Assembly: GCF_003019035.1 (NCBI RefSeq)
Contig: NZ_CP027448.1
Direction: 5' to 3' (one strand)
DNA length: 64,000 nt
Source: Escherichia coli
GTDB taxonomy: Bacteria > Pseudomonadota > Gammaproteobacteria > Enterobacterales > Enterobacteriaceae
The position numbers and the translations under genes are program-made. The notes under the pieces are model-generated. The model was not told the origin of the DNA. It made no database searches and saw nothing but the letters and a program-made list of their open reading frames with translations. Positions within the stretch are counted from its first letter, which is position 1. Every line of letters begins with the position of its first letter. Shown here in pieces: positions 11,074 to 64,000 of the stretch.

Positions 11074-11087
11074 AAACGTATATCCCT

Positions 11088-11116
11088 TTGACATATCCCG
11101 GCATCAATCCCACAAT
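11088..11116 (+). promoter_or_regulatory. Candidate vapBC promoter with ATATCC/GGATAT operator-like repeats
   Basis: TTGACA (11088..11093), 17 nt, CACAAT (11111..11116); ATATCC occurs three times and GGATAT once between 11081 and 11140, upstream of AGGAGG-ATG of vapB. Confidence 0.3.
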
Positions 11117-11154
11117 GGATATACACAAGACATATCCACATAAGGAGGCAAATA

Positions 11155-11382
11155 ATGGAAACCACCGTATTTCTCAGCAACCGCAGCCAGGCGGTCAGAC
11201 TGCCAAAAGCGGTTGCATTGCCGGAAAACGTAAAACGCGTTGAAGTGATTGCTGTCGGACGAACCCGAATCATTACGCCTGCCGGAGAGACATGGGACGA
11301 ATGGTTCGACGGAAACAGTGTCAGCGCTGATTTTATGGATAACAGGGAACAGCCTGGTATGCAGGAAAGGGAGTCATTCTGA
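11155..11382 (+). CDS. vapB: VapB/VagC antitoxin (AbrB/SpoVT-type)
   Basis: 75 aa: METTVFLSNRSQAVRLPKAVALPENVKRVEVIAVGRTRIITPAGETWDEWF...; stop overlaps vapC start (TGATG). Confidence 0.9.
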   Translation: METTVFLSNRSQAVRLPKAVALPENVKRVEVIAVGRTRIITPAGETWDEWFDGNSVSADFMDNREQPGMQERESF

Positions 11383-11780
11383 TGCTGAAGTTTATGCTCA
11401 ATACCAACATCTGCATTTTTACGATAAAGAACAAACCCGCCAGTGTCAGGGAACGTTTTAACCTGAACCAGGGGAGAATGTGCATCAGTTCGGTCACTCT
11501 GATGGAGCTGATATATGGTGCAGAAAAAAGCCAGATGCCTGAACGTAATCTCGCTGTGATCGAGGGATTTGTTTCCCGCATTGACGTTCTGGATTACGAC
11601 GCTGCTGCTGCCACACACACCGGCCAGATAAGAGCAGAACTTGCCCGTCAGGGACGCCCTGTCGGGCCATTTGATCAAATGATCGCAGGTCATGCCCGCA
11701 GTCGGGGACTGATTATTGTGACTAATAACACCCGGGAATTTGAACGTGTGGGCGGCCTGAGAATTGAAGACTGGAGTTGA
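11382..11780 (+). CDS. vapC: VapC/VagD PIN-domain toxin
   Basis: 132 aa: MLKFMLNTNICIF...LMELIYGAEKS...DQMIAGHARSRGLIIVTNNTREFERV; PIN acidic residues in the usual positions. Confidence 0.9.
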   Translation: MLKFMLNTNICIFTIKNKPASVRERFNLNQGRMCISSVTLMELIYGAEKSQMPERNLAVIEGFVSRIDVLDYDAAAATHTGQIRAELARQGRPVGPFDQMIAGHARSRGLIIVTNNTREFERVGGLRIEDWS

Positions 11781-50567: not shown

Positions 50568-51344
50568 TCAGCCCCTGATTTTTGCCAGGGCATCCGCCAT
50601 GCTGCGGATTTCGGCCCGGGCTTCCCGGACAACTTCCCGCAGAACACCACGGTCAAACCTCTGGCGGGGCGGTTCATCCGGTATACGCAGCACATCGCAG
50701 GCCAGCCCACTGGACAGGATATGTTCAATACAATCGCTGACCAGATACATTTCCACCGCCGAAAAACGTGCGCCCCGGTTCAGGATGGCATCGAGCACCA
50801 CGGGCAGGTTTTCGTCGTCCTCATCGAGCCAGCAGGGGTGATCGCTTTCCTTCACGACCAGGCGAAAGCGGCGCGTCTGGCGGGTCAGTAACGTCTGACC
50901 AGTGGTGGTCAGCGCCGCCCGGATACGCCGCGTATCTTCTGCCACCCGGCAACTGACACTGCGTACCGCATCGCGCACCGCCGCAAGTACAGCCCTGATT
51001 TCGTCTTCGGTCAGCCATTCACCGGCATACGGAAAAGACACCTGCGTTCCGTCTGCCGGAAGTACCGGCAGCGACTGCCACTGACTGCCGGACAGTACAA
51101 GTTCCTCCCCGGTTCCGGTCAGTTTGTGAATGGCGGAGGCCAGGAGCGGCGGCAGTACGCCGCCGTGACGGTTTATAAGTAACGTCGCCAGCTGGGGCGC
51201 ATCCAGCCGCACGTAAATGCTGATCCAACCCGGATAGTTCGGGTTTCGCTGGTCAACATCAGTCTCTTCCGGCCAGCCCTGCGCCAGCAGCAGGTCGCGG
51301 GCGTGACGACAAATCAGTGCATTCAGCGTTGTGTTTTCGTTCAT
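50568..51344 (-). CDS. Conserved leading-region protein, 258 aa, unknown function
   Basis: Clean ORF with its own terminator; no motif recognised. Confidence 0.55.
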
Positions 51345-51389
51345 GATTAATCGTTCTCCCTGTATCGCCGCCCGGAGGCGGCGATAACA

Positions 51390-51824
51390 TCAGTCGTTTT
51401 CGTGTGTGTTGTTTTTCAGCAGGCTGCGGGTCTGATTAACCACCGCCTGACGGCGGGTGACGCATTCCGGGACGGCGAGGCCGTTATCACGGGCGGCCCA
51501 TTCACGCTTCCACAGTGCCTGTTCAGCGGTCTGAATCAGGGACGCCAGCAGTTCAGCAGGGACGGTCACCTGGCGGTTTTCACTCACGTTGCTGATAATC
51601 TCCATCGCCGCACAGGAAGAAATACCGGACTCAGTCCGCTGGTCTTCCGGGATGTCCTCCAGCCGCGCCAGGACGGTCCTGATTTCATGATCGGACAGGG
51701 AAATATCCATTCCGTCAGCGAGGGCCTGAGTTTCTTCCGGGGACCAGATAACCAGCATCAGCGGCGTGTCTCCCGGATACTGCGCTGCCAGCTCCCGGCA
51801 CAGCGTTTCGCATGTTCCGTACAT
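51390..51824 (-). CDS. Leading-region protein, 144 aa (DUF1380-like paralogue)
   Basis: See 49261..49683; MYGTCETLCRELAAQYPGDTPLMLVIW...RQVTVPAELLASLIQTAEQAL. Confidence 0.55.
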   Translation of the reverse strand: MYGTCETLCRELAAQYPGDTPLMLVIWSPEETQALADGMDISLSDHEIRTVLARLEDIPEDQRTESGISSCAAMEIISNVSENRQVTVPAELLASLIQTAEQALWKREWAARDNGLAVPECVTRRQAVVNQTRSLLKNNTHEND

Positions 51825-51837
51825 TCTCGTCTCCTTC

Positions 51838-52059
51838 TCAATCTTTGAAGCAGGAATCCAGTTCCAGAATTTCGGTATACGCCTCCATAAACAGGCGATT
51901 GGCGCGATACAGCGTCTGGCGTGTCAGGCGTTCAACAAGCACATCGGAATCAAAGCGACAGCGATGCTCCATATCGTTCAGCCTGGCCCGAAGGTCACAC
52001 ATGGTGTTGGCCACCTCCGCCACGTCGGCGCGAAGTTTTTCGTGTCCGGCATAGTTCAT
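51838..52059 (-). CDS. Hypothetical helical protein, 73 aa
   Basis: Start codon directly abuts the stop of the methylase gene (52060), so probably co-translated. Confidence 0.5.
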   Translation of the reverse strand: MNYAGHEKLRADVAEVANTMCDLRARLNDMEHRCRFDSDVLVERLTRQTLYRANRLFMEAYTEILELDSCFKD

Positions 52060-52743
52060 TTACGCAGCCTCCGGTTCAAACCAGTTATCATTCGCGGCCC
52101 CCTGCTGCATGGCCCGTTGCACGGCGGCCATTCGTTGCTGTCCGGCACGGTGATACTGTTCAAGCAGCTCGATACCGATATACCGGCGTCCGGACTGAAG
52201 GGCGACCACGCAGGTTGAGCCGCTGCCTGCAAACGGGTCCAGCACAATCGCGTTCGGATGTGTGAAGCTCTCAATCAGTGGTTGCAGGCTGGTAACGGGC
52301 TTTTCCGTCGGGTGATGGCGGTTGCCTGAATATTTCCAGCCCAGCACGTCCGGCAGCAGGTTTTGTGGCAGACGTGGACGGCCTTTTGCCAGGATGTAGG
52401 CGCATTCGTGGCGATAGCCCACATATGCGGCCTTCGATGTGTAGTTTTTGGTGAAGACCAGGTGCTCGACCACACTGAATCCCGCATTTTTCCAGGCGGC
52501 CATAAAGCGATCGACGCGGTTCCAGCCATAGAGGCTCACCATCAGCGCGTCTTTTTTCAGCACACGGTACATTTCATTACAGGCCGGTTGCAGCCATTCA
52601 TCGGTTTTATCACCCGCGATGGTACGTCCCTGACGGTCACGAAAACCGACGAGGTACGGCGGGTCAGTCAGCATGAAATCAATGGCGTTATCAGGGATAC
52701 GGGCCATAACATCGATGCAGTTACCGAGGACAAAACGGGACAT
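52060..52743 (-). CDS. Orphan DNA N6-adenine/N4-cytosine methyltransferase (beta-class), 227 aa
   Basis: Motif IV LTDPPYL near the N-terminus, motif I VLDPFAGSGSTC near the C-terminus, HPTEKP in between; no cognate endonuclease. Confidence 0.88.
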   Translation of the reverse strand: MSRFVLGNCIDVMARIPDNAIDFMLTDPPYLVGFRDRQGRTIAGDKTDEWLQPACNEMYRVLKKDALMVSLYGWNRVDRFMAAWKNAGFSVVEHLVFTKNYTSKAAYVGYRHECAYILAKGRPRLPQNLLPDVLGWKYSGNRHHPTEKPVTSLQPLIESFTHPNAIVLDPFAGSGSTCVVALQSGRRYIGIELLEQYHRAGQQRMAAVQRAMQQGAANDNWFEPEAA

Positions 52744-53085
52744 AACAACGCTCCTTCTTTCACAGAGGGCACCGGGAGGGCCCCCTGTGGTGCCCGTTCC
52801 CCGCTGCCTGTGGGCTGTTCACCGCGTCCGGTAACTGGTCAGGCCGACCGTGGAATACCGCAGCCGTCGTCTTTTTGACGGCAAGGTTATGCCGCGAAAG
52901 CGGCTTGAAGGGCGTTCATCAGAAAAGGGCGACGGGCTGGCGTACACTGTCACCGACGCCAGCCGGGAGCGGTAAAAGCGACCGTTCCGTGCCCGCCGGA
53001 CGCGGGACACTGACCACAGGCAGCGTTCCTGCCGCGCCGCGTCAGCCGGCGCAGTAAAAAGAGGAGCACGGCGACATCCTTTGTC

Positions 53086-53114
53086 GGAAAAGAAACGGGC
53101 GGTTGCCCGCCCGT
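53086..53114 (-). terminator. Terminator hairpin after ORF 53127..54053
   Basis: Minus strand ACGGGCGG-GCAA-CCGCCCGT followed by TTCTTTTCC. Confidence 0.55.
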
Positions 53115-53126
53115 CTCCGTCATACT

Positions 53127-54053
53127 TCATCCGCCATAATGCGCCACATTGTCGACTATCCACGCAGGTCCGGTGACCTCCGGCAGCTCATCGTCATCTG
53201 TCGGGGAAGACCATTCCTGTTCCCCCCACAGAACATCAACAAGCTCTCCACGCTCATATCGCTGCCAGCCACAGAAATTGCAGCCCTGTTCGGCATACCA
53301 GTGCTCCAGCGTGCAGCCGAAACGGCGGCTTAATTCTGCAACAACGTCGCTTTCCGGCTGACACCACGGCGTGTCAAAATCCACCTGAATGAAGTTTTCT
53401 CCCTGACGGCCGATATTCAGGTCATACCCACAAGGCCACTTCACGCCATACCGTTCCGTATACCAGTGATATGCAGAAGGAACACCGTTCAGAACACCAC
53501 CGTTAAAGCCGTTCACTTCAACATCCAGGCGGGTCGGCAGAACCGTCAGCAGGTCAAACGGCATGGTTTTTTCCGGCACTACGTTGTCACACAGACGGTT
53601 CCACCACACCGATACATCCTCGTTACTCCAGAAGCCACACCAGTCACCTCTTTTTGCGGTGAAAAGTGCGGTGATGGTATCCCTGACATCGTCCGGTAAT
53701 CCTTCCCAGCGACGCTGTCCAGTACCGCTCTGCAGCCAGAGTTCATGCAGCATCAGGCAGTTTTGCTCATCCAGCAGTACACCGTCCTGCAGATATGTCA
53801 GCCAGCGGGTGAACGCGATATTCTCCGGCGATACAACGCCACGCCCGGCAGCCGTCAGTCCGGGGCATGGTTCAAACCGCACATCTTCAGTGGTCTGCAG
53901 AAGTCCGGCACTTCCGGCCAGAAACAGCTGAATACCTTCATTTGTGGCGCGGCGATAAAGCGGTGTGACTGCGCCGCTGGCCAGTCGTTTAATCTCAGCG
54001 ATCTGTGCCGGTTCACCAGAAAAATACATACGATTCGAGCACCAGTTTGGCAT
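53127..54053 (-). CDS. Conserved leading-region protein, 308 aa (recalled as DUF1281-like)
   Basis: ATG 54053 with GAGGAG SD: MPNWCSNRMYFSGEPAQIAEIKRLASGAV...; the upstream extension in the track is unlikely. Confidence 0.6.
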   Translation of the reverse strand: MPNWCSNRMYFSGEPAQIAEIKRLASGAVTPLYRRATNEGIQLFLAGSAGLLQTTEDVRFEPCPGLTAAGRGVVSPENIAFTRWLTYLQDGVLLDEQNCLMLHELWLQSGTGQRRWEGLPDDVRDTITALFTAKRGDWCGFWSNEDVSVWWNRLCDNVVPEKTMPFDLLTVLPTRLDVEVNGFNGGVLNGVPSAYHWYTERYGVKWPCGYDLNIGRQGENFIQVDFDTPWCQPESDVVAELSRRFGCTLEHWYAEQGCNFCGWQRYERGELVDVLWGEQEWSSPTDDDELPEVTGPAWIVDNVAHYGG

Positions 54054-54407
54054 GGGAATTCTCCTCTCACATGCGGCCTCCATCAGGCCGTGCCGCACCT
54101 GTAACCGGGCGACCGCATACGAATGCAGGTGCGGCCCCGAAGCCGCAGCGCGTGGAGGAGGAACGACGAAACGTGACCGGGTGAGGAGGCCGGCGACAGC
54201 GACACACTTGCATCGGATGCAGCCCAGTTAACGTGCCGGCACGGCCTGGGTAACCAGGTATTTTGTCCACAGAACCGTGCACAAAATGCTGTGGATAAGC
54301 TGGACACAGCAGCCCACAGCAGGCATACAGCCACACCCTCAGAGAATTGAACGTTTTTTAGCCGCAACAATGACATTTGACTGTATGTGGATTCAGTTAT
54401 TAGAATG

Positions 54408-54423
54408 CTGTATATGCATACAG
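54408..54423 (+). promoter_or_regulatory. LexA (SOS) box of the impCAB operon
   Basis: CTGTATATGCATACAG = perfect CTGT-N8-ACAG, 24 nt upstream of impC; a weaker box CTGTATGTGGATTCAG lies at 54381..54396. Confidence 0.8.
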
Positions 54424-54446
54424 CAAAAGAAAAGAGAGATGAGAAC

Positions 54447-54695
54447 ATGATCCGCATTGAAATTCTTTTCGACCGCCAGAGCACAAAAAACCTCAAATCA
54501 GGCACACTTCAGGCGCTACAGAATGAAATCGAACAACGACTGAAACCACACTACCCGGAAATCTGGCTGCGTATAGACCAGGGCAGCGCCCCGTCTGTAT
54601 CTGTCACAGGAGCCCGCAACGACAAGGATAAAGAACGTATCCTGTCTCTGCTGGAAGAAATCTGGCAGGACGACAGCTGGCTGCCTGCAGCATGA
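54447..54695 (+). CDS. impC: ImpC, DinI-family protein, 82 aa
   Basis: ATG 54447: MIRIEILFDRQSTKNLKSGTLQALQNEIEQRLKPHYPEIWLRIDQGSA... (DinI-like pattern); overlaps impA start (ATGA). Confidence 0.8.
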   Translation: MIRIEILFDRQSTKNLKSGTLQALQNEIEQRLKPHYPEIWLRIDQGSAPSVSVTGARNDKDKERILSLLEEIWQDDSWLPAA

Positions 54696-55129
54696 GTACC
54701 GTTTATCACCGTCCGGCTGACCCTTCAGGCGATGACAGTTACGTGCGACCGTTGTTTGCCGATCGTTGCCAGGCCGGTTTTCCTTCGCCTGCCACTGATT
54801 ATGCTGAGCAGGAACTGGATCTGAACAGCTATTGCATCAGCAGACCTGCAGCCACCTTCTTTCTGCGCGCCAGCGGTGAATCGATGAACCAGGCTGACGT
54901 GCAGAATGGTGATCTGCTGGTAGTGGACAGGGCCGAAAAACCACAACACGGGGACATCGTTATCGCTGAGATCGACGGTGAGTTCACCGTCAAACGACTG
55001 CTGTTGCGCCCACGCCCGGCACTGGAGCCGGTTTCAGACAGCCCGGAGTTCCGCACACTGTATCCGGAAAACATCTGTATTTTTGGTGTTGTCACTCACG
55101 TGATACACAGGACGCGGGAGTTACGCTGA
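54692..55129 (+). CDS. impA: ImpA, UmuD-family S24 self-cleaving protein, 145 aa
   Basis: ...GFPSPATDY..., catalytic Ser in RASGESM and Lys in FTVKRL. Confidence 0.9.
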   Translation: MSTVYHRPADPSGDDSYVRPLFADRCQAGFPSPATDYAEQELDLNSYCISRPAATFFLRASGESMNQADVQNGDLLVVDRAEKPQHGDIVIAEIDGEFTVKRLLLRPRPALEPVSDSPEFRTLYPENICIFGVVTHVIHRTRELR

Positions 55130-55256
55130 TGTTTACACTGGCTGATATCAACAGTTTCTACGCCTCATGTGAAAAAGTTTTCCGCCCGGACCTTCGCAAC
55201 GAACCGGTCATCGTACTCAGCAATAACGATGGCTGTGTGATCGCACGCAGCCCAGA
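55129..55256 (+). pseudogene. impB: impB (UmuC-family Y-polymerase) 5' fragment, codons 1-42
   Basis: MFTLADINSFYASCEKVFRPDLRNEPVIVLSNNDGCVIARSP, then the frame is lost at 55257. Confidence 0.9.
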
Positions 55257-55301
55257 TTATGTGGAATTGCAAGTAACGTTGTAGTGCTGATGAGGAAAAT
55301 T

Positions 55302-57530
55302 TTATCTGACTACAATATTGATATCGTTTTCCGCAACAATCAGCATCACGGCAGGTAAACCCTCCACACGCATTTTCTGGTGTAATTTTTTGATTAAATT
55401 ATCATCTTCATTACTGGCTTTTGCGGAAAAGCCTTGTGGATGGGAGTGCCATTCGCCAACATAATCGACAACACGAGCGGTCAACTGGTGAACCCGTTCT
55501 AATGCTTCTTGTTGTCCCGCTTCTCCCCGGACAAAGGAGGCTGGAGAGGATTTACTGTCGATAGGTTCAGGGAGCACGTCAACCAGAATAATCGTTTTGT
55601 TCTTAAAATCTGTTATGCCAACAATTGCACCTCCTGTTTCATTAGGCAGTGCCTGTAAGCGGGTGTGCTGCAATTTTTGCGCTAAGCCCTGGTCATATTT
55701 AACAACCCATTCGCCAGAAATTATAGATACCACGGAATAGAGTTCAATTTCATGTGCATCCATCGCGCCTGATATTTCATCAGATACCCAGATACACAAT
55801 CGAGCATTTCCTTTGAGTGCAGTCTGGCGAAGTTGGCGTGAGAGGATACCGGCATGAACATGAATACATTCACTGGACATACGTACAGAAATATCCCGAC
55901 ATCCACCACCGACCCAACGATCGCCATAATTGTGCTGTAGGTGAGTACTTCCCCACTCACTGCTCAAAATTGCCCGATAGTATTGCCCCTCAATTGCATC
56001 AATTCGGCATTGTCTGTCTACATCCTCCATTAACATCACGCTAGACTGACCCGATGGAGTCAGAAACAGGCTAACTATTCTGGGTATATCATCTTTTAAC
56101 ACTAGAGTCCTCGGCACCTCAAAGGTGGTACTGACATCCACAACTAAGTCTGCCTCATTCATTGCCTTAGCAATATCATCATCGTCATCAAGAATACTTT
56201 TATGGATCGCCTGAGGGAGGGGCTCATGCGGATAAATAGATTTGGCAATATGCTGAATAATATGGGGTTTTGAGACTCCAATATGACAATCAAACCCAAT
56301 ATGGCGAGACAAATTATGTGGAAGAAGCCGATCTGGATCAATAAAAGTCCATGTCCCCCACCCCATTCGAATCCAAATATCAGCCAATGTACTACCAAGA
56401 GCGCCAACTCCAGCTAAAATACCTCGAAAAGCTGCACTCTCTGAATCAACAGCAGATATGTCTCTCGCATGTGTGGCCTTCATAGCCGAACGTATTTCAA
56501 CTGGTAAAAGCGGTAATTGTCGCCACTTGGTACTAATTGATCCGCCAAGAAGCCGTACGCGATGCTGTACTCCTCGCTCATTTTTTGGCGCCAGCATATC
56601 TAGTGCAGTGGCAAGTTCACCGAGTGAACTTTGCACAACATAGCCCATCACATCCGTACGTTCTGTTTCTCCGTTTCTTAGACGGGGGATCCAAAGCAGG
56701 ATAAGTAAGCCTTCTCCTTTACCAGACGTTGGGCGGATACCATCACTTGGTATTGCTTCATAAACAGCGTCAGTTAGTGGTTTTAGGAGCTCACTTCCCC
56801 ATTCATTAAGTTGTTCTTCTAATTTTCCCAGATTATCCGGGTATGTAGCCACCGTAGAAACATCGACAGGAGGAACAGCAATAGTTAATAAGCGAAATGG
56901 CTTAACGCTTGAGGTATCTTGTTCTGGTACAGCCCTTAAAATAATCGGTCGCCCCTCACTGACCATCTGGAGACTGAGCTTATTGTCAGTCGCGTGATGA
57001 TAATCGGGGTAATTGGCTGGCAAAATGAGCTGATAGGGACTCAAATAAAAAAGTTGCTCAAGTGGCTGATCTTCTCGATGTAGATGCAGTTCGGCCGATT
57101 CTCTAAGCCACCAAAAAATGCGCTCAAGGAATCTCTCGGGGGTCCAACTGCGCTCAACTGCGCTCCAGGAGGCCTCATATAGGCAAAGAATTCGTGGTGA
57201 GCCAGGTTCTCCAGCATGCTGGTGAGAAAGAACAGGGAAATCTTTCCGCAATGCATGAACCAAGATAGGTATGCTTGATTTGGGATTGACCTCAATAGCC
57301 AATCGTTCTTTACGACGAATACGGGCTTGATTACCAGAAGCCACAGTCCCATCAGCAGCATCAATGATTAGATATTCCGAGCGGTTATCATTTATTTCAG
57401 AAAATCGTAATTCTCTGACTGTGACGTAAGGATGATTCTCGCATGCTTTAAGCAGCGAAATCGTTTGTGGATAAAGGCTATCGCGCCCCGATGAATCGAG
57501 GCGCTCACCCAATTCGAAATATTCGATCAT
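55302..57530 (-). CDS. E2-like / E1 (ThiF) adenylation / JAB deubiquitinase-like triple-fusion protein, 742 aa (Cap2+Cap3-like)
   Basis: E2-like LSHQHAGEPGSPRILC(116)LYE. E1 GILAGVGALGS (G374-x-G-x-x-G379), FIDPDRLLPHNLSRH, ADLVVDVSTTFE, GGGC(544)RD. JAB NE(631)TGGAIVG and EWH(695)SH(697)PQGFSAKAS(706)NED(709). Confidence 0.8.
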   Translation of the reverse strand: MIEYFELGERLDSSGRDSLYPQTISLLKACENHPYVTVRELRFSEINDNRSEYLIIDAADGTVASGNQARIRRKERLAIEVNPKSSIPILVHALRKDFPVLSHQHAGEPGSPRILCLYEASWSAVERSWTPERFLERIFWWLRESAELHLHREDQPLEQLFYLSPYQLILPANYPDYHHATDNKLSLQMVSEGRPIILRAVPEQDTSSVKPFRLLTIAVPPVDVSTVATYPDNLGKLEEQLNEWGSELLKPLTDAVYEAIPSDGIRPTSGKGEGLLILLWIPRLRNGETERTDVMGYVVQSSLGELATALDMLAPKNERGVQHRVRLLGGSISTKWRQLPLLPVEIRSAMKATHARDISAVDSESAAFRGILAGVGALGSTLADIWIRMGWGTWTFIDPDRLLPHNLSRHIGFDCHIGVSKPHIIQHIAKSIYPHEPLPQAIHKSILDDDDDIAKAMNEADLVVDVSTTFEVPRTLVLKDDIPRIVSLFLTPSGQSSVMLMEDVDRQCRIDAIEGQYYRAILSSEWGSTHLQHNYGDRWVGGGCRDISVRMSSECIHVHAGILSRQLRQTALKGNARLCIWVSDEISGAMDAHEIELYSVVSIISGEWVVKYDQGLAQKLQHTRLQALPNETGGAIVGITDFKNKTIILVDVLPEPIDSKSSPASFVRGEAGQQEALERVHQLTARVVDYVGEWHSHPQGFSAKASNEDDNLIKKLHQKMRVEGLPAVMLIVAENDINIVVR

Positions 57531-58708
57531 TGGTTTGATACACCTGCCCTAGGAGCGGCGGCCGTAGCAGCACTTACCGCAGCTGAAACAGCACCAACAA
57601 TAGCGGGTATTAACTTCCCGTCTCCAGCCACTTCAAATTCAAGGAACGCTGTATCTTTAAGATCCCCCGTACAGCTAAACCAACCATCAACACTGTCCAG
57701 AATATCCTCATACTCACGCTTAGCCCGGATGCACGGTGGATCATAATCATCATCAAGTATCTGATTGCTACTCGATACAATTGTTGCCCCGGAACGAGCC
57801 TGACCTAAAGCATTACGGGCCGCATCACAAACTTCAGCATTCTCCCCCCATTGTGACCAGCTATCATAGGAAAGTGAATGCCATGAACAATGATGCGGTG
57901 TGAGGAGAAGATCATATTCTAGTGCCTCAGCATTGCTTTTGTAACGATCCCATAATCGCTCCCAGATGAGAACTTCTGCGTCTCCACCTAATAGAAAGTG
58001 CATAGGATTACGGGAATATGCAGAGGGCAGTATTTTCATGTTCATGATGATACTGGATTCGTTTTTAGAAAGAGCTTCTTCCAAATATTCATCATCTTCA
58101 TGTGGTGCGGGCGCCAGAAGCTGTGCGGAGAACACTTCTGAAATTTGCCCGTCAATTCTGGTGAATGTATCTCCAGCTTTGATAAGAATGGCACTCAGAT
58201 CATCTGTTTTGCCATTAATATCTTCACCCATGATAAGGATTCGATTACCGCTAGATGCATAACCATGTTCCCGCCAGTATTTTACTCGGCGCCGTGCTTC
58301 TGTATTAAATGCCTGAGCATCTTCGCAAAGTGTGTGACTTTTGGAACGACGCCGAAAAATCAATGGTGATGACCACAATTCTCGAATAATGATACGCTTT
58401 TCTGAACGTTTCACATCGTCATCTGGATAATCTTCAGGACGGCCCAGCCAGAAATGTTTACGCAGGCCACCGCAATGATCCTGATCGGGATGACTGAGCA
58501 TAAAAACATCAATAAAGGGACGATCTTTTTCATCATACTTCAATCTGCTACGTAATGCCGAGGCAACATCAGGTGTGTCATCATTGGGGTTATCAGCAGC
58601 AGAGCGAATATGTACATCAATCAGAATGGATGTGCCCCGGGTGTCGGCCAAACGTACCAGTGTCATATCACCGTTGCCGACTTGGAAAAAAGTAATTTTG
58701 GCTGCCAT
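57527..58708 (-). CDS. Metallo-beta-lactamase-fold hydrolase, ComEC/Rec2-like subtype, 393 aa, with Ala/Gly-rich C-terminal tail
   Basis: FFQVGNGDMTLV, LSHPDQDHCGG, LLGGDAE and LTPHHCS follow the ComEC-type MBL motif order. The AGGAG SD favours ATG at 58708 over 58714. The stop overlaps the next gene's start (ATGA at 57527..57530). Confidence 0.78.
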   Translation of the reverse strand: MAAKITFFQVGNGDMTLVRLADTRGTSILIDVHIRSAADNPNDDTPDVASALRSRLKYDEKDRPFIDVFMLSHPDQDHCGGLRKHFWLGRPEDYPDDDVKRSEKRIIIRELWSSPLIFRRRSKSHTLCEDAQAFNTEARRRVKYWREHGYASSGNRILIMGEDINGKTDDLSAILIKAGDTFTRIDGQISEVFSAQLLAPAPHEDDEYLEEALSKNESSIIMNMKILPSAYSRNPMHFLLGGDAEVLIWERLWDRYKSNAEALEYDLLLTPHHCSWHSLSYDSWSQWGENAEVCDAARNALGQARSGATIVSSSNQILDDDYDPPCIRAKREYEDILDSVDGWFSCTGDLKDTAFLEFEVAGDGKLIPAIVGAVSAAVSAATAAAPRAGVSNQ

Positions 58709-58767
58709 CGACATCTCCTTTAGGGATACGAAAGATTGAGGTTAAGAGCATCTATTGCTAAGATACA

Positions 58768-58795
58768 TCTAGTAATTATACTAGTCTAGTAATTA
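58768..58795. promoter_or_regulatory. Candidate operator in the divergent promoter region
   Basis: Direct repeats TCTAGTAATTA at 58768..58778 and 58785..58795, enclosing the palindrome TACTAG-T-CTAGTA (58779..58791). Confidence 0.4.
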
Positions 58796-58842
58796 GACGT
58801 ATATTTTGGACTTAAATTGTAAGTACAGGAAATTATTGATAA

Positions 58843-59697
58843 ATGAGTGATAAAATGGTGAGAACTGGTCATTGGAGCCAAGAAAGACGGCTTGAATTCA
58901 TCGATTTTCGCCTACTGTGGGAAGGTCGGCTTAACCGTGCAGATCTCACGACATTTTTCAGAATTTCAGTTCCGCAAGCCTCATTAGATTTGGCAAAATA
59001 TCAAGAAGTTGCGCCAAACAACATGGTGTATGATCGAACTCAGAAGGCTTACATTACGACTCCTGATTTCAAACCTGTTTTTACAAGCTTTGACAGTAAT
59101 CATTACCTGAATGAACTACTTGGGCGAGAAAATGAAATAGTGGATCCTGATGATAGTTTCATTGGGTGGGTACCCCCGGTAGCCAGCCTTCCTCTCCCTG
59201 CCAGGAAAGTACAACCTGAAATATTGATTGATTTAATTCGAGCCATGCAAAGAAAACAGGCTTTGGTTGTTGATTATCGCTCAATGACTAATGAACCAGC
59301 AATTCGTACGCTATACCCAACAGCATTTGCACATGATGGGCATCGGTGGCATGTTCGTGCTTATTGTTTTAAGTCTACAATGTTTAAAGATTTTGTTCTT
59401 GGTAGGTTTTTTAAAATCGTTGAATTTGTTTCCCCACCGACATCAATTCCACAAGATGTGGACTGGAATACATTTATTGACGTGGTAATAGGTCCAAACC
59501 CTAACTACGATATGAATAAACGGCTATCTATTGAACATGATTATCAAATGGTAAAAGGAGAAGCAAAAATCCACATACGTAAAGCGCAATTATATTATCT
59601 TAATCGTCGATTAAATTTGGATGTAAATAGCGATGGTTCAATAGATGACAAACAGCAGATCATCATGCTCAGAATAGACGAGTCTAAAACCTATTAA
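58843..59697 (+). CDS. wHTH-WYL-domain transcriptional regulator (CapW/BrxR-like), 284 aa
   Basis: N-terminal RRLEFIDFRLLWEGRLNRADLTTFFRISVPQASLDLAKYQ (wHTH); WYL-type core ALVVDYRSMTNEPAIRTLYPTAFAHDGHRWHVRAYCFKSTMFKDFVLGRF. Confidence 0.78.
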   Translation: MSDKMVRTGHWSQERRLEFIDFRLLWEGRLNRADLTTFFRISVPQASLDLAKYQEVAPNNMVYDRTQKAYITTPDFKPVFTSFDSNHYLNELLGRENEIVDPDDSFIGWVPPVASLPLPARKVQPEILIDLIRAMQRKQALVVDYRSMTNEPAIRTLYPTAFAHDGHRWHVRAYCFKSTMFKDFVLGRFFKIVEFVSPPTSIPQDVDWNTFIDVVIGPNPNYDMNKRLSIEHDYQMVKGEAKIHIRKAQLYYLNRRLNLDVNSDGSIDDKQQIIMLRIDESKTY

Positions 59698-59709
59698 GGG
59701 AATATTTAT

Positions 59710-60228
59710 ATGAATGCGAATGATGTTAACAAACGGAATAAAGAATGGATGATTGTAATCATTATTATCTATCTTTTTATTTTGTTATGTATAGCAACAT
59801 ACGCTATTGGGGCTATGTCTCTAGGTTGGTTACCAACACCTTACGCACCATTAAGGGTGCCACTGATGTGCGGAGCAATTGCCTATATAGGTGGTTGTTT
59901 ATATTGTTTTCGTGCAATTTACCTCAATAAATGTATTAGAAAACAATGGGATCCAGATTGGCATGTATGGTATTTCATTCGCCCACTGACCAGTACAATC
60001 GCAGGTGCTATCAGTTATTTATTCCTTAAGGCGGGGTTGTTAGTTTTGGAGTCTAGTTCCAATGTAGGAGCTAGTGAAATGGGTTTCTTTGCGCTGGCAT
60101 TTATTGCTGGTTTTAACGTCGATAAATTTGTCGCAAAAATCGAGGAAGTTGCAAAGGCTGTCTGGGGTATTGAAAAAACTCGAAGCTCGACTAATAATGA
60201 TGCGAAAAATTCGGAAAAAAAAGAATAG
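59710..60228 (+). CDS. Four-TM membrane protein with charged C-terminal helix, 172 aa
   Basis: Hydrophobic segments ~13-35, 50-70, 85-108 and 122-137; starts 13 nt after the WYL gene stop; no motif recognised. Confidence 0.6.
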   Translation: MNANDVNKRNKEWMIVIIIIYLFILLCIATYAIGAMSLGWLPTPYAPLRVPLMCGAIAYIGGCLYCFRAIYLNKCIRKQWDPDWHVWYFIRPLTSTIAGAISYLFLKAGLLVLESSSNVGASEMGFFALAFIAGFNVDKFVAKIEEVAKAVWGIEKTRSSTNNDAKNSEKKE

Positions 60229-60274
60229 TCTGGATGTATTTAAATTAAAATGAAATTAGTGCTGAGCTATTTTA

Positions 60275-62486
60275 TTACTTTCTCTTATTTCCTGGGGTCG
60301 CGCCCCCAGTGAGCTTATTCAAAAGTTTGTCCACTGCCTGTATATCGTTTTCTACAGCGGCTTGTTCGTCATCAGTCAAAGGGATTTCCTGCATCAGCTT
60401 GAGTAGATTCTGGCGACCTTCCAAGTATTGTGCTTCAGATGAAGATTTTGGCATATAAAATGAGCATTTTGCACATGCCATCCGATGGGGGCATTGCTCA
60501 AAAAAGTCATAAGTACAGAAACCGTGTCCAAGATCATAATAACGCCATGGCTTCCCGGATGCTACCAGCCCTTCAGCTATCGCGTCTTGATCAATGAGAA
60601 CTGAAACCATGCGGCGATTACATTCAAAGTAACCAGCTTTATCCAGTGATCCTGCCAACCTCGTCGGTGTAATTTCGACATAATGTCGGGTAGATTCAGG
60701 TGAAGAATGCCCCAACCATTTCTGTAGCTCAAAAATATCAAGTGGTTCCCTGGCGTTGTAAAGCTGACTGGCTATAGTGGCTCTTGCCCGATGGCTGGTG
60801 ATTTTACCTCTGGCATCCTGCTCAGGTATACCAGCCTTTCTGCATAGCAAAGGGATTAGCGAATTATTAATATAACTACTGTGTACCCGTTTCCCCCTGT
60901 GCATGAACAAAAAACGGACGCTTTCACCTGTTTTAGAATCTTCCTGGAGGGGGTGGGGGTTACGAACAAGTTCCCATTGTTCGATATATTCCCCGATAAT
61001 AGGGTCAACTGGCTTTGTGAATGCCGCGTAAGTCTTGCTAACGGGTACATCTATCAGACAGATACGGGATACATTATTTTCTTCTGGCTGTTGCCAGCGG
61101 ATACACCCACACTGCATACGTAGAATTTCATCACGTCTGAGGCCTCCAAATAACCAGAGAACGCTGAGTGCTCTGACCATCTCCAGTGGATAAAAATAAG
61201 GATATGCAACACAGTTTGGTAAATCCGACTCCTGCAGGTTCTGTCCGGCGTGAAGTAATTTACACCACATATCATCGGCCACAATACGAGGCTCTGGTCC
61301 AACCAGGGAAGTCAAGCTACGCGGTGCCCTGAAAACTCTTTCTGGGCTGAATCGTACAGGTATCCATCCCCATTCCTGCAAGTCATGAAAGAAAGTTCTA
61401 ATATGACCCAACATCCTGGCTCTCGCTGCAGGCATCATCATTTTGCCACGACGGTCACGATACATGCCCCCAGGGGTTGCCCATTCACCAACTTTCATTC
61501 TACAAGCGGCGGTCACCCAGACGATCGCGGTGTCCCGTGTCCAATCAGATGGTGACAGACAGGTTGGATAGCACTCAGCTAACCAGCTGACCACACTTTA
61601 GCAAAACGTACCAACCGGACAAAATAGATGAAGGGCGAAGTACTGAGGTAGCACGCCACCGTTTGCACCATACCAGCCATTTAGTTGGTACATCAGCTGT
61701 TGCATTATATTCGCGGGGAGGACGGCGACGTTGTGTTATTCGGTAATCAACCCCTTCCTCAATAGTCCCTGATGCAGCCAGTATACGCGATAGAGTAGCT
61801 GAGGCTTCCCGGAGGGAATCCGGGCACGTTGCAGCAATCTGTTGCAACGTGGTCACGGTGATATGGTCTAGTTGAGCATCCCTTTGCAGAAGCATTGCCA
61901 TACACATGGCATTTCTGATGCCGTTGTTCCGACTATCACGAGGCACATATCCCAGAACCTGCATCATATTGTCAAGCTGGCTGACGGCAAAATCGGTGCT
62001 CTGTCGGCCAAAAACCTTAAGACAGAGCCGATATTGATAGAATATGCCACAGTGTTCCAGCCGCTCAAACCCACATAGCAACCATGCTAACGCTATAACA
62101 TATTGCCGACAGTTGCCGCTGGCTCCAAACCGTCGACGAAATTCCCCTTCGCTGTTGCAAATAACTTCTAACCACTCTTCTTGTGTCCAGGCCCAGTATG
62201 TTTTCCGGATGCGCTGCATCTCTAGGACTATATCGTGAATAGATGAATTGTAGGGGGCCTTGGCCGCATGCATTTTTGTTAGCGTGTCGCGTAGTGGTAA
62301 AAGAAGGCGGGAAAGCCGTTTTTGTATATCAGGTGACCAGTTTTTACCTCCTTGCTGGAAGTGGTCGACCAATGTATCCAGTGCCGCAAGCTCGCTTTCA
62401 GAGATCTCCGATCGGGTATCCCAAAGTAGGGCAGGAAGACTGAGTGATGTTGTCGGACAAGGCGCTGTATGTTCAGATTGCATCAT
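60275..62486 (-). pseudogene. Large tyrosine recombinase (Tn554 TnpB-like) split by a 1-nt frameshift into 303-aa N-terminal and 439-aa catalytic ORFs
   Basis: ORF 61575..62486 has no catalytic residues and ends ...GWYVLLKCGQLVS*. ORF 60275..61594 (track start is a GTG) continues ...WLAECYP... and carries GGLRRDEI, SHRARATIASQL, GHSSPESTRHYVE (R-H-R-Y) and a CPHRMACAKC motif. The frames overlap at 61575..61594. ATG 62486 overlaps the upstream stop (ATGATG). Confidence 0.65.
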
Positions 62487-63535
62487 GGAGAAGGATCCTG
62501 CTGTTGTAGTACAGTAAGGCGGCAAGTATGCAAGGATGCGACCGTGTAATTGAAACGACTACTCAGATCACGTGCGCTGAGATGAATATAGAGCAGAGTT
62601 GACTGGATACGACGGTGGCCAGCGAATGCAGCAATTTCGTGGATGTCCCACCCCACGCGTGCCAGTTCTGTCAGACAAAGATGTCGGAATGTGTGGGTGC
62701 TGATGAGTGGAAGATCAGCCTTAATAGCTAAACCGCGAACTACTTTTGACCAAGTCCAGTTGCTAATAGGTTCTGCCCGATTACGCGGAGAGCGTGAGAG
62801 AAACAACGGACCGCGAGATGAGCTTAGCATACGACGTTCAGTGAGCCATGCTGTGTAGAGTTCCCCCGTCACAGGAGAATAGGGCACAACCCGACCAAAG
62901 CGGTTTTTGGTATGCTCAGCGCGCACAGTGAGCAAGCGTTGAGAAGGGTCAATATCTCCGGTAGCTACTGTGCAAAGTTCTTCTCTGCGTAATCCGCAGT
63001 CGTAGGCCAGTGCCAGCATAAAACGAGTACGGATATCAGCTTGTCCGGCTACCTCAAGAAAGCGCAACCACTCCGCATCATCCGGGATCCACGGTAGCCG
63101 CCGCTGCAACGGCACTATACCAGCTTTTCCTTTCCCTCCGTTTTTCCAGACACCTCGTCTGACAGGATTTCTCTCCCGTATCCCCTCCTCACAAAGCCAA
63201 TAGTTGTACAGTCGTACCACCGTCAGCCGGTGGCGGATAGTGGCAGCTGCCAGCTGGCGACCGGTATGCAGGCTGCGGACATAGAGTGCGACCGTATCAC
63301 GTCCAGCGACAGCAGCCGTCAGGGCAACAGAGTGACAGAAAGCGAGCCAGTCATTGACGCCACGGGCATAGGCATCAATGGTGTTTGGAGCACACAGCAG
63401 GTCCTCCTGCAGGCACACCCACCGGCAAGCTGAAGGATCGGCCGACAGAAAAGGCAGCGCATCCAGCAGTTTCTTGTGCACAGCATCCCCCTTTTCGATA
63501 ACAGAATGTGTTGTATGAAATATAGTCAATTCCAA
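62483..63535 (-). CDS. Tyrosine recombinase (TnpA/XerD-like), up to 350 aa
   Basis: Catalytic set GLRREEL, HTFRHLCLT, GHRRIQSTLLYIH. The track start (63535) is a TTG only 8 nt from the element end; GTG at 63481 with a GGGGGA SD is a plausible alternative. Confidence 0.85.
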   Translation of the reverse strand: MELTIFHTTHSVIEKGDAVHKKLLDALPFLSADPSACRWVCLQEDLLCAPNTIDAYARGVNDWLAFCHSVALTAAVAGRDTVALYVRSLHTGRQLAAATIRHRLTVVRLYNYWLCEEGIRERNPVRRGVWKNGGKGKAGIVPLQRRLPWIPDDAEWLRFLEVAGQADIRTRFMLALAYDCGLRREELCTVATGDIDPSQRLLTVRAEHTKNRFGRVVPYSPVTGELYTAWLTERRMLSSSRGPLFLSRSPRNRAEPISNWTWSKVVRGLAIKADLPLISTHTFRHLCLTELARVGWDIHEIAAFAGHRRIQSTLLYIHLSARDLSSRFNYTVASLHTCRLTVLQQQDPSP

Positions 63536-63543
63536 ATAACATA

Positions 63544-64000
63544 GAAGCGAAGCGGCTGGGCATAAAAATGGGAGTACCGTGGTTTCAGCTGAAGTCGGTG
63601 AAATTTCCGGAGCCGGTCATCGCCTTCTCCAGTAATTACGCGCTATACGCATCGATGTCGAACAGGGTTATGTCTCATCTCGAGGAGCTGGCGCCGGGCG
63701 TGGAGCAGTACAGTATTGATGAGATGTTTCTCGACGTGCGGGGTATTGACAGCTGCATCGATTTCGAGGATTTCGGCCGGCAGCTGCGTGAACACGTCAG
63801 GAACGGGACTGGCCTGACTATCGGTGTCGGAATGGGGCTAACCAAAACGCTGGCAAAGTCAGCACAGTGGGCTTCCAAAGAGTGGCCACAGTTTGGTGGC
63901 GTGCTGGCGTTAACGCCAGGCAATATCCGCCGTACGGAAAAACTGCTGTCACTGCAGCCGGTGGAGGAAATCTGGGGGGTAGGCAGCAGGATATCAAAGA
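63544..64000 (+). pseudogene. impB: impB 3' portion (from codon 43), continues beyond window end
   Basis: Open frame EAKRLGIKMGVPWFQLKSVKFPEPVIAFSSNYALYASMSNRVMSHLEELAPGVEQYSIDEMFLDVRG...GVGMGLTKTLAKSAQWASK...IWGVGSRISK, colinear with UmuC residues ~43-195. Confidence 0.9.

Follow-up and report, generated by a model that had tools for sequence, protein, structure and literature searches.

In type II CBASS, Cap2 adenylates the C-terminus of the partner enzyme and ligates it to lysines, and Cap3 cleaves; the terminal Gly or Ala of CBASS enzymes is conserved only where full Cap2 and Cap3 are present (Jenson 2023). An operon type designated "6a", usually consisting of two genes, was described by Iyer, Burroughs and Aravind in 2006, and the 6A-MBL system (van den Berg et al. 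2024) has been cited as a (jumbo-)phage defense since 2024. According to the Corbett lab, metallo-beta-lactamase (MBL) pathways conjugate their enzyme with an E2-E1 fusion, and the preprint of Ledvina et al. makes no mention of MBL operons. The window analyzed here, a stretch of 64,000 nucleotides of Escherichia coli plasmid DNA, contains a locus of this kind with the following features.

57527-58708, minus strand: MBL-fold enzyme assigned to the 6A-MBL system, 393 aa.
57530-57598, minus strand: disordered C-terminal tail of the MBL, residues 371-393, with ...A-P-R-A-G389 and then V-S-N-Q, a predicted conjugation handle.
55302-57530, minus strand: E2-E1-JAB triple-module protein (Cap2-Cap3 fusion), 742 aa, assigned with NF058523 and Pfam.
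58709-58842, no strand: intergenic stretch separating capW from the MBL operon, a divergent promoter/operator region read from the sequence.
58843-59697, plus strand: CapW-family wHTH-WYL-WCX transcriptional repressor, divergent from the MBL operon.
59710-60228, plus strand: accessory gene for a small protein of 172 aa that is predicted to cross the membrane several times.
60275-63535, minus strand: three consecutive overlapping recombinase genes, the backbone of the element, from ORFs and the RefSeq annotation of an identical plasmid locus.
55129-55256, plus strand: 5' stump of the plasmid umuC (impB), the left insertion junction, annotated in RefSeq as a truncated Y-family polymerase.

The ORF of the MBL gene spans 57527-58714 on the minus strand and encodes 395 residues, with 58708 as its second in-frame ATG. 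The latter is the better start, as AGGAG lies 6 nt upstream, homologues start with MAAK, and the RefSeq CDS (WP_000729190.1) agrees. Both the ORF and the motif series named in a first-pass annotation of the DNA were borne out; in the 393-residue numbering the motifs are V10-G-N-G-D14, S72-H-P-D-Q-D-H-C-G-G81, G241-G-D-A-E245, and P271-H-H-C-S275. Residues H73, D77, H78, D243, H272, H273, and S275 are invariant in 71 family members of 27-56% identity, in which conservation reaches 90% or more at N12, G13, and G81 and position 75 is Asp in 63 and His in 8. The motifs are not due to chance, as they are conserved over these 71 members and the protein matches a curated equivalog model, NF058524 from NCBIfam (425.6 bits, E 1.4e-127, cutoff 220, profile positions 1-344 of 346). 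The MBL gene is accordingly annotated, by its sequence, as the hydrolase component of the two-gene anti-phage system 6A-MBL. This system was previously known, and the proposal of a DNA-targeting effector coupled to a conjugation enzyme is not new, because the system has already been named and curated as 6A-MBL. Its family is sporadic, located on mobile elements, and widely spread (546 species genomes).

The MBL gene is translationally coupled to the gene for the E2-E1-JAB protein; the stop codon of the former and the start codon of the latter fall within the same 4 nt (ATGA). The partner protein scored 661.1 bits against NF058523 (NCBIfam equivalog, cutoff 320), contains the Pfam domains Prok-E2_A, ThiF, and Prok-JAB, and matched the PADLOC E1-E2 and JAB models at 1e-23. 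All three of its catalytic centers are intact, with H103/C116, G374xGxxG379, C544, E631, H695xH697, S706, and D709 invariant in 69 of 69 homologues. Among related loci with enough downstream flank, 74 of 76 carry E2-E1(-JAB) directly downstream of the MBL gene, and the two exceptions involve a truncated MBL or a high-GC contig. Searching with the E2-E1-JAB sequence by tblastn gave no match in 11 of 80 related loci; four of these 11 end at a contig edge, five have a divergent E1-type gene directly downstream of the MBL gene, and the other two are the exceptions just named. A split E2-E1 with a separate JAB gene follows the MBL gene in four loci, and a ThiF-only ORF does so in one frameshifted locus. 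An 1166-aa "MBL-E2-E1-JAB fusion" (P0128) was rejected as the product of a frameshifted assembly. None of the four genes of the locus matched a cyclase (CD-NTase, cGAS/DncV-like) in Pfam, PADLOC, or NCBIfam.

The divergently encoded repressor matched CapW from S. maltophilia (7tb6, E 1.2e-62) and BrxR (7t8k, E 2.5e-38) in a phmmer search and contains a Pfam WYL domain and the RWHVR ssDNA-binding motif, and 44 of the 80 related loci have a homologue at the corresponding place. Two short palindromes, TAGTA-ATTA-TACTA and GTCTA-GTAAT-TAGAC, lie in the intergenic region at 58768-58800, inside repeated TCTAGTAATTA; as CapW and BrxR bind palindromic sites, this region is probably the CapW operator. 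The 172-aa membrane protein belongs to no family in Pfam, PADLOC, or NCBIfam, and its gene is found with the closest relatives only, where it lies past capW or follows the E2-E1-JAB gene. A tyrosine-recombinase element of 8.3 kb, which interrupts the plasmid umuC, carries the defense module. Two of the three recombinases are annotated as tyrosine recombinases and one is without a name, element-free plasmids match the flanking sequence at 98% with the match ending at 55256, and a search for terminal inverted repeats of the element found none. The system is present on about 170 sequenced enterobacterial plasmids, and its carriage may alter the phage susceptibility of the host.

The MBL is a soluble protein of the ComEC-type metallo-beta-lactamase fold in which all the binuclear ligands of the ComEC-like set are intact (H73, D75, D77, H78, N216, D243, and H272/H273). 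A Pfam search gave no match even up to E 1, Lactamase_B included, and phmmer and hmmsearch against PDB sequences returned only non-significant ComEC matches and a spurious ACT-domain match, so the fold was assigned from structure comparison and hhalign. In the hhalign alignment, the motifs line up with motifs I-V of E. coli ComEC/YcaI, whose MBL domain comprises residues 501-672; identity to the ComEC domain is 19%. Both ligand substitutions that separate ComEC from Pce are present, namely an Asp where motif II would have His and an Asn in motif III, a pattern described by Silale et al. as ComEC-specific and Mn2+-binding. The first-pass placement in a "ComEC/Rec2-like branch" is therefore right as to fold, motif register, and ligand substitutions but not as to family membership: the TIGR00361 match, confined to the N-terminal 80 residues, reached 10.5 bits where the cutoff is 190.05, and the 393-aa protein opens with motif I, lacks membrane and OB domains, and has no Pfam Competence or DUF4131 match. 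For this MBL, "ComEC/Rec2 family competence protein" is a misleading RefSeq name. At the sequence level the protein resembles the defense-MBL models LmuA (4.8e-14), RTasMBL, and Avs1a in PADLOC and NCBIfam. The further statement that this domain family is implicated in DNA degradation agrees with experiment, as both the ComEC C-terminal domain (CTD) and the defense MBL HamM are DNases; HamM does not cut RNA.

In the modelled 395-aa ORF, pLDDT is below 50 at residues 373-395 (the 393-aa numbering plus 2). Across the family this tail consists of a near-invariant ...PRAG followed by 0-5 residues that are predicted to be removable, and some homologues end exactly in PRAG. The column of G389 is Gly in 68, Ala in 2, and Ser in 1 of 71 members, and VSNQ is predicted to be a four-residue pro-peptide for the JAB domain to remove. 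In every one of 73 loci (40/40, 29/29, and 4/4), the motif of the tail corresponds to the type of conjugation enzyme, a co-variation confounded by the common descent of operon clades. Together, the conserved C-terminal Gly tail and the co-variation with partner type suggest that the MBL is most likely the conjugated substrate, and by analogy it would be the conjugated cargo, as is cGAS in type II CBASS. The first-pass annotation had described a free-standing MBL coupled to a conjugation enzyme; the E2-E1-JAB partner and the defense setting stand, but the MBL is most likely itself what is conjugated.

Our preferred reading, to which we assign a probability of roughly 60%, is that the MBL is the 6A-MBL hydrolase, is conjugated by its partner via G389, and acts as a DNA-degrading phosphodiesterase. 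Most likely, this nuclease is attached to other proteins by its ubiquitin-ligase-like partner through the conserved C-terminal glycine. In the proposed mechanism, the divergent CapW-type repressor would keep the operon off, and ssDNA or DNA damage in infection would induce it. The JAB domain would trim the VSNQ extension and could also undo conjugation, and the E1 domain would adenylate G389, after which the MBL would pass via thioesters with E1 (C544) and then E2 (C116) and be ligated to a lysine of some target, comparable to cGAS in type II CBASS. The conjugated, primed, or localized MBL, a phosphodiesterase of the Mn2+ type in this scheme, would then degrade the DNA of the phage or, in abortive infection, that of the host. 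It would be the direct effector, because the operon has no further conserved effector gene.

Possible, though unlikely, is that the MBL is a conjugation-regulated phosphodiesterase whose substrate is not DNA but RNA, a (cyclic) nucleotide, or an envelope or lipid head-group phosphodiester as for Pce. The profile search and structural comparison suggested in the first-pass annotation found the ComEC-type motifs and fold and no significant Lactamase_B match, with Pce/CbpE as a near-tie in both structure searches and RNase J, RNase Z, and CPSF73 next in one of them (a BFVD search returned three viral MBLs without names and nothing usable). The ComEC CTD also shows general phosphodiesterase activity, and a well-folded insertion that separates motif II from motif III (~70-100 aa, at about residues 90-200), with E137, R140, and R141 invariant and absent from ComEC, could shape a different pocket and redirect substrate specificity. 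Jumbo phages keep their DNA out of reach of nucleases in the cytoplasm; with 6A-MBL among the jumbo-phage defenses, this speaks against a mechanism in which phage DNA is simply cleaved. Set against these points, the ligands are ComEC-like rather than Pce-like, the sequence-detectable relatives with known biochemistry are DNases only (the ComEC CTD and HamM-type defense MBLs), and Pfam detected no choline-binding or other targeting domains. Pce itself has HxHxDH in motif II, a motif III His (Zn2+), and choline-binding repeats, whereas the present MBL has the ComEC ligand pattern and no repeats, and assignment as a Pce/CbpE phosphorylcholine esterase was rejected.

A rather doubtful extension of the preferred DNase reading makes conjugation an addressing device as well: the trimmed DNase would be tethered via G389 to a specific phage or DNA-associated protein and so reach otherwise inaccessible DNA, such as jumbo-phage genomes, with E137/R140/R141 of the insertion keeping the untethered enzyme inactive. 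It is improbable that the MBL instead occupies a sensor or signal-generating slot like that of a CD-NTase, with its product activating a separate effector such as the membrane protein encoded at 59710-60228. The chassis is the same as that of CD-NTases (a C-terminal G/A tail with Cap2/Cap3), the MBL variants P0125 and P0153 carry, in exchange for the tail, an AGS_C sensor domain that is elsewhere found on cyclases, Ye et al. use the term "signaling enzymes", and the membrane gene accompanies the operon in 11 of 80 loci at two different positions. A hydrolase, however, is not an obvious signal synthase, and the absence of the membrane gene from 69 of 80 loci, with the operon usually having two genes (Iyer et al.), indicates that there is no conserved downstream effector. 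The PGAP name in recent records and a weak blaAHM match (E 0.0076) notwithstanding, a competence (DNA-uptake) protein or an antibiotic-hydrolyzing beta-lactamase is very improbable, being refuted by the TIGR00361 result and by the bla family models and closest folds, which place the protein outside B1-B3, as the first-pass annotation had read from the motifs.

The locus is the same as 6A-MBL (NF058524 plus NF058523), with both cutoffs passed and the MBL gene followed directly by the E2-E1-JAB gene. Nothing essential differs: this is a textbook copy of a defense system with published genetics, extended by a CapW repressor and a small membrane protein and located, within an E. coli plasmid, on a recombinase-trio element. 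The comparative results provide experimental handles, including the ComEC-type Mn2+ ligands, the Gly tail with its extension, the tail/E1-E2 co-variation, and the AGS_C exchange. Relative to the MBL domain of ComEC/Rec2, the present MBL is free-standing and cytoplasmic, lacks a channel and OB-fold, and has an extra folded insertion and a conjugation tail. The trypsin-MBL modules of Hachiman, AVAST type 1, Lamassu, and DRT (HamM/Avs1a-type) are likewise defense-associated ComEC-like MBLs with detectable sequence similarity, and HamM is a DNase that is inactive until a post-translational event, in which a fused trypsin-like protease cuts two occluding loops. Membership in this group was rejected: the MBL scored 16.9 bits against NF041809 (cutoff 420), far below the Avs1a cutoff, the neighbors (E2-E1-JAB and CapW) include no protease, and control would instead be exerted by E1, E2, and JAB on the C-terminus. 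With type II CBASS the locus shares homologous E2-E1 and JAB enzymes, CapW control, and a partner enzyme with a flexible C-terminus ending in a conserved Gly or Ala (here Gly in 68 and Ala in 2 of 71). In 6A-MBL, by contrast, a single polypeptide contains E2, E1, and JAB, and the conjugated enzyme would be a hydrolase rather than a nucleotide cyclase, with no second messenger and no separate effector. The comparative results suggest that the control logic of cGAS-like cyclases is one that bacteria also apply to a hydrolase.

The MBL-fold protein matched no Pfam family and scored 425.6 bits (cutoff 220) against NCBIfam NF058524 ('anti-phage 6A-MBL system MBL-fold protein'). Its downstream neighbor, with Prok-E2_A, ThiF and Prok-JAB domains in Pfam, scored 661 bits (cutoff 320) against NF058523 ('6A-MBL system cap2_3 protein'). 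The locus represents a named system with curated models, and the identical protein sequence is already in RefSeq. Later papers credit the anti-phage activity of 6A-MBL to van den Berg et al. (2024) and name it among jumbo-phage defences. The MBL family is of moderately large size: 915 clusters at 50% identity match with an E-value of 1e-3 or better. Relatives were found in 546 species-representative genomes from many phyla.

Features of the locus and its surroundings (window coordinates)
50568-54098 (-), typical conjugative-plasmid leading region, upstream of the locus
52060-52743, DNA methylase within the leading region
54387-54695, DinI-like/ImpC, after the leading-region genes
54692-55129, umuD, after DinI-like/ImpC
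55302-57530, E2-E1-JAB gene (742 aa), directly downstream of the MBL gene with an ATGA overlap
57527-58714 (-), ORF of the MBL gene
58768-58800, intergenic palindromes TAGTA-ATTA-TACTA and GTCTA-GTAAT-TAGAC, inside the repeated TCTAGTAATTA
58843-59697, CapW-family repressor (CapW match and RWHVR motif), divergent, upstream of the MBL gene
59710-60228 (+), small predicted multi-pass membrane protein (172 aa)
60275-63535, three consecutive recombinase genes

The second in-frame ATG of the MBL ORF, at 58708, is the better start, since AGGAG lies 6 nt upstream, all homologues begin with MAAK, and the RefSeq CDS WP_000729190.1, found in identical plasmids, has exactly this start. The resulting protein is soluble and 393 aa long. 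The four motifs picked out in the first-pass annotation (VGNGD, SHPDQDHCGG, GGDAE and PHHCS) are present and form the conserved core of the family. Across 71 aligned members (27-56% identity), H73, D77, H78, D243, H272, H273 and S275 never vary, and N12, G13, G81 and N216 rarely do (N216 is kept in 70). Position 75 is Asp in 63 members and His in the other 8, giving the motif II pattern H73-x-D75-x-D77-H78.

The catalytic domain is ComEC-like. Foldseek returned 9ic4 first (E 1.2e-12) and next the phosphorylcholine esterase Pce (5.3e-11), a non-nuclease that is a near-tie in both structure searches, which ranked the two alike. In a comparison of the family profile with E. coli ComEC/YcaI, the five motifs all line up with those of its MBL domain (residues 501-672); the E-value is 2.9e-4 and the hhalign probability only 40%, the target being a single sequence without secondary structure. 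Silale et al. reported that ComEC differs from Pce in having Asp for one His in motif II and Asn for the motif III His, and that Mn2+ binding and DNase activity go with this ligand set; the 6A-MBL MBL family has exactly the same pattern. Weak but significant matches to models of defence-associated MBLs (PADLOC LmuA, 4.8e-14; RTasMBL, 2.3e-7; NCBIfam Avs1a, 0.002) agree with it. Tuck et al. described these trypsin-MBL modules as ComEC-like nucleases and showed one member, HamM, to be a DNase proenzyme. The earlier placement in the ComEC branch rather than among antibiotic-hydrolysing MBLs holds.

By inference, the substrate is most likely DNA, and the proposed role as a nuclease effector is plausible from the fold, the ligand pattern and the activities of the ComEC CTD and HamM, if unproven. 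The main rival, hydrolysis of a non-DNA phosphodiester, is a distinctly less probable reading, favoured by the near-tie with Pce. Between motifs II and III, members further contain an inserted, well-folded stretch of roughly 70-100 residues that ComEC lacks, among them the invariant E137, R140 and R141. We consider it improbable that the protein is a signalling enzyme acting through a separate effector, as no further gene is conserved; this reading ranks below the main rival. Membership in the ComEC/Rec2 family proper was rejected: TIGR00361 gave 10.5 bits (cutoff 190), and the channel and OB-fold domains of ComEC/Rec2 were both sought in the protein and not found, which excludes a competence protein. 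The recent PGAP name 'ComEC/Rec2 family competence protein' (e.g., NZ_JBSQHB010000003, 10328-11509 in the related locus L001; 'metallohydrolase' or 'hypothetical protein' in older records) is misleading, because the protein carries an MBL domain alone, belongs to a defence system and scores far below that cutoff. A beta-lactamase is excluded as well.

The first-pass annotation read the domain correctly and overlooked a conserved C-terminal Gly tail. The last ~23 residues are predicted to be disordered and are poorly conserved apart from the extreme end. All close homologues finish in (A/P)PRAG plus 0-5 variable residues, with Gly the exact end in several, and the wider family finishes in HG, YG, YA or PRAG, in some members followed by a few more residues. 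Of the 71 aligned members, 68 have Gly in the column of the conserved Gly, 2 have Ala and 1 has Ser. Among 73 related loci with complete genes, tail type and conjugation-enzyme type partition perfectly: [RK]AG plus 0-5 residues with the triple module like that of the window (40/40 loci), HG plus 0 or 2 residues with a triple module of divergent E2 region (29/29), and [YF]A at the exact end with a split Prok-E2_B/UBC-ThiF protein and a separate JAB gene (4/4), a co-variation partly confounded by the shared descent of operon clades. The 69 distinct triple-module partners all keep the E2 His and Cys (H103, C116), the E1 nucleotide loop G374xGxxG379 with the crossover-loop Cys C544, and the JAMM site (E631, H695xH697, S706, D709). 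Despite the confounding by descent, it is hard to explain otherwise that one small residue persists at the tip of a tail that drifts freely elsewhere.

The same signature marks the cGAS of type II CBASS, whose terminal Gly/Ala, according to Jenson et al., is conserved only with full Cap2 and Cap3, is required for thioester formation and lysine conjugation, and is the residue precisely after which Cap3 cuts. Ye et al., citing van den Berg, state that the E2-E1 fusion of 'MBL pathways' conjugates their enzyme to unknown targets. On the basis of the tail/partner partition, the intact partner sites, the cGAS signature and this statement, we read the MBL protein as a probable conjugated cargo, and the VSNQ extension would be a pro-peptide cut off by the fused JAB domain. 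One family member, P0137 (631 aa), has ~240 residues beyond its TIRPHG tail motif, with no Pfam match there; this could be an assembly artefact or a genuine fusion between cargo and the product of the following gene, and such a fusion would need JAB cleavage as in BubAB.

The divergent repressor matched S. maltophilia CapW with an E-value of 1.2e-62 and contains the RWHVR ssDNA-binding motif. Of 80 related loci, 44 have a CapW homologue at the equivalent place. Once CapW binds ssDNA generated by DNA damage, it leaves its palindromic operator; the two short palindromes in the 134-bp MBL-capW intergenic region are candidates for such operators, overlying the divergent promoters. Judging by CapW and type II CBASS, to which parts of the locus are homologous, and by the comparative data, we propose as the most likely mechanism that CapW would keep the operon repressed until ssDNA or DNA damage appears, JAB would trim the MBL tail, and E1 would adenylate G389, passing the protein via E1 and E2 thioesters to a lysine of a target protein. 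The primed or localised MBL, a Mn2+-type phosphodiesterase, would then degrade DNA, a step proposed from the fold, the ligand pattern and the ComEC CTD and HamM activities.

The membrane protein, which belongs to no known family, accompanies the operon in 11 of the 80 loci, beyond capW in some and downstream of the E2-E1-JAB gene in others. These two alternative positions suggest a functional link, and it could be an accessory effector or target.

Together with the three recombinase genes, the four genes make up an insert of about 8.3 kb (55257-63535), which lies in umuC (impB) on a conjugative plasmid of enterobacteria. E. coli plasmids share the locus at 99.9% identity, and about 170 PLSDB plasmids have most of it. 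In plasmids without the insert the match stops at 55256, and the left flank is 98% identical to their umuD-umuC. The right umuC piece (flank 63625-63989) is only 67% identical to the empty-site allele; the flanks are therefore not two halves of one gene, and the element may have brought a piece of a foreign umuC with it. A search for terminal inverted repeats of the element found none. The leading region also holds DUF1281 and antirestriction-type genes. These neighbors and umuD place the defence element in an early-transferred, SOS-related part of the plasmid.

For experiments on the chemistry, where the interest now lies, the comparative data single out specific residues; they bear on what is cut, what the protein is conjugated to and what the putative pro-peptide does.

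In P0125 and P0153, two members of the family, the Gly tail is replaced by AGS_C, a sensor domain that CBASS and Pycsar cyclases carry at their C-terminus. The single metagenomic contig available for them (L084, 1229-4427) shows an AGS_C-type MBL gene followed by a 261-aa unknown protein and another ComEC-like MBL, of PADLOC type PDC-M48B (239 bits). A resolvase lies upstream, and the arrangement may represent a defence architecture not yet characterised. With its Gly-tail and AGS_C forms, one hydrolase thus occupies two regulatory chassis that normally hold nucleotide cyclases, which fits an enzyme kept off until infection is sensed.
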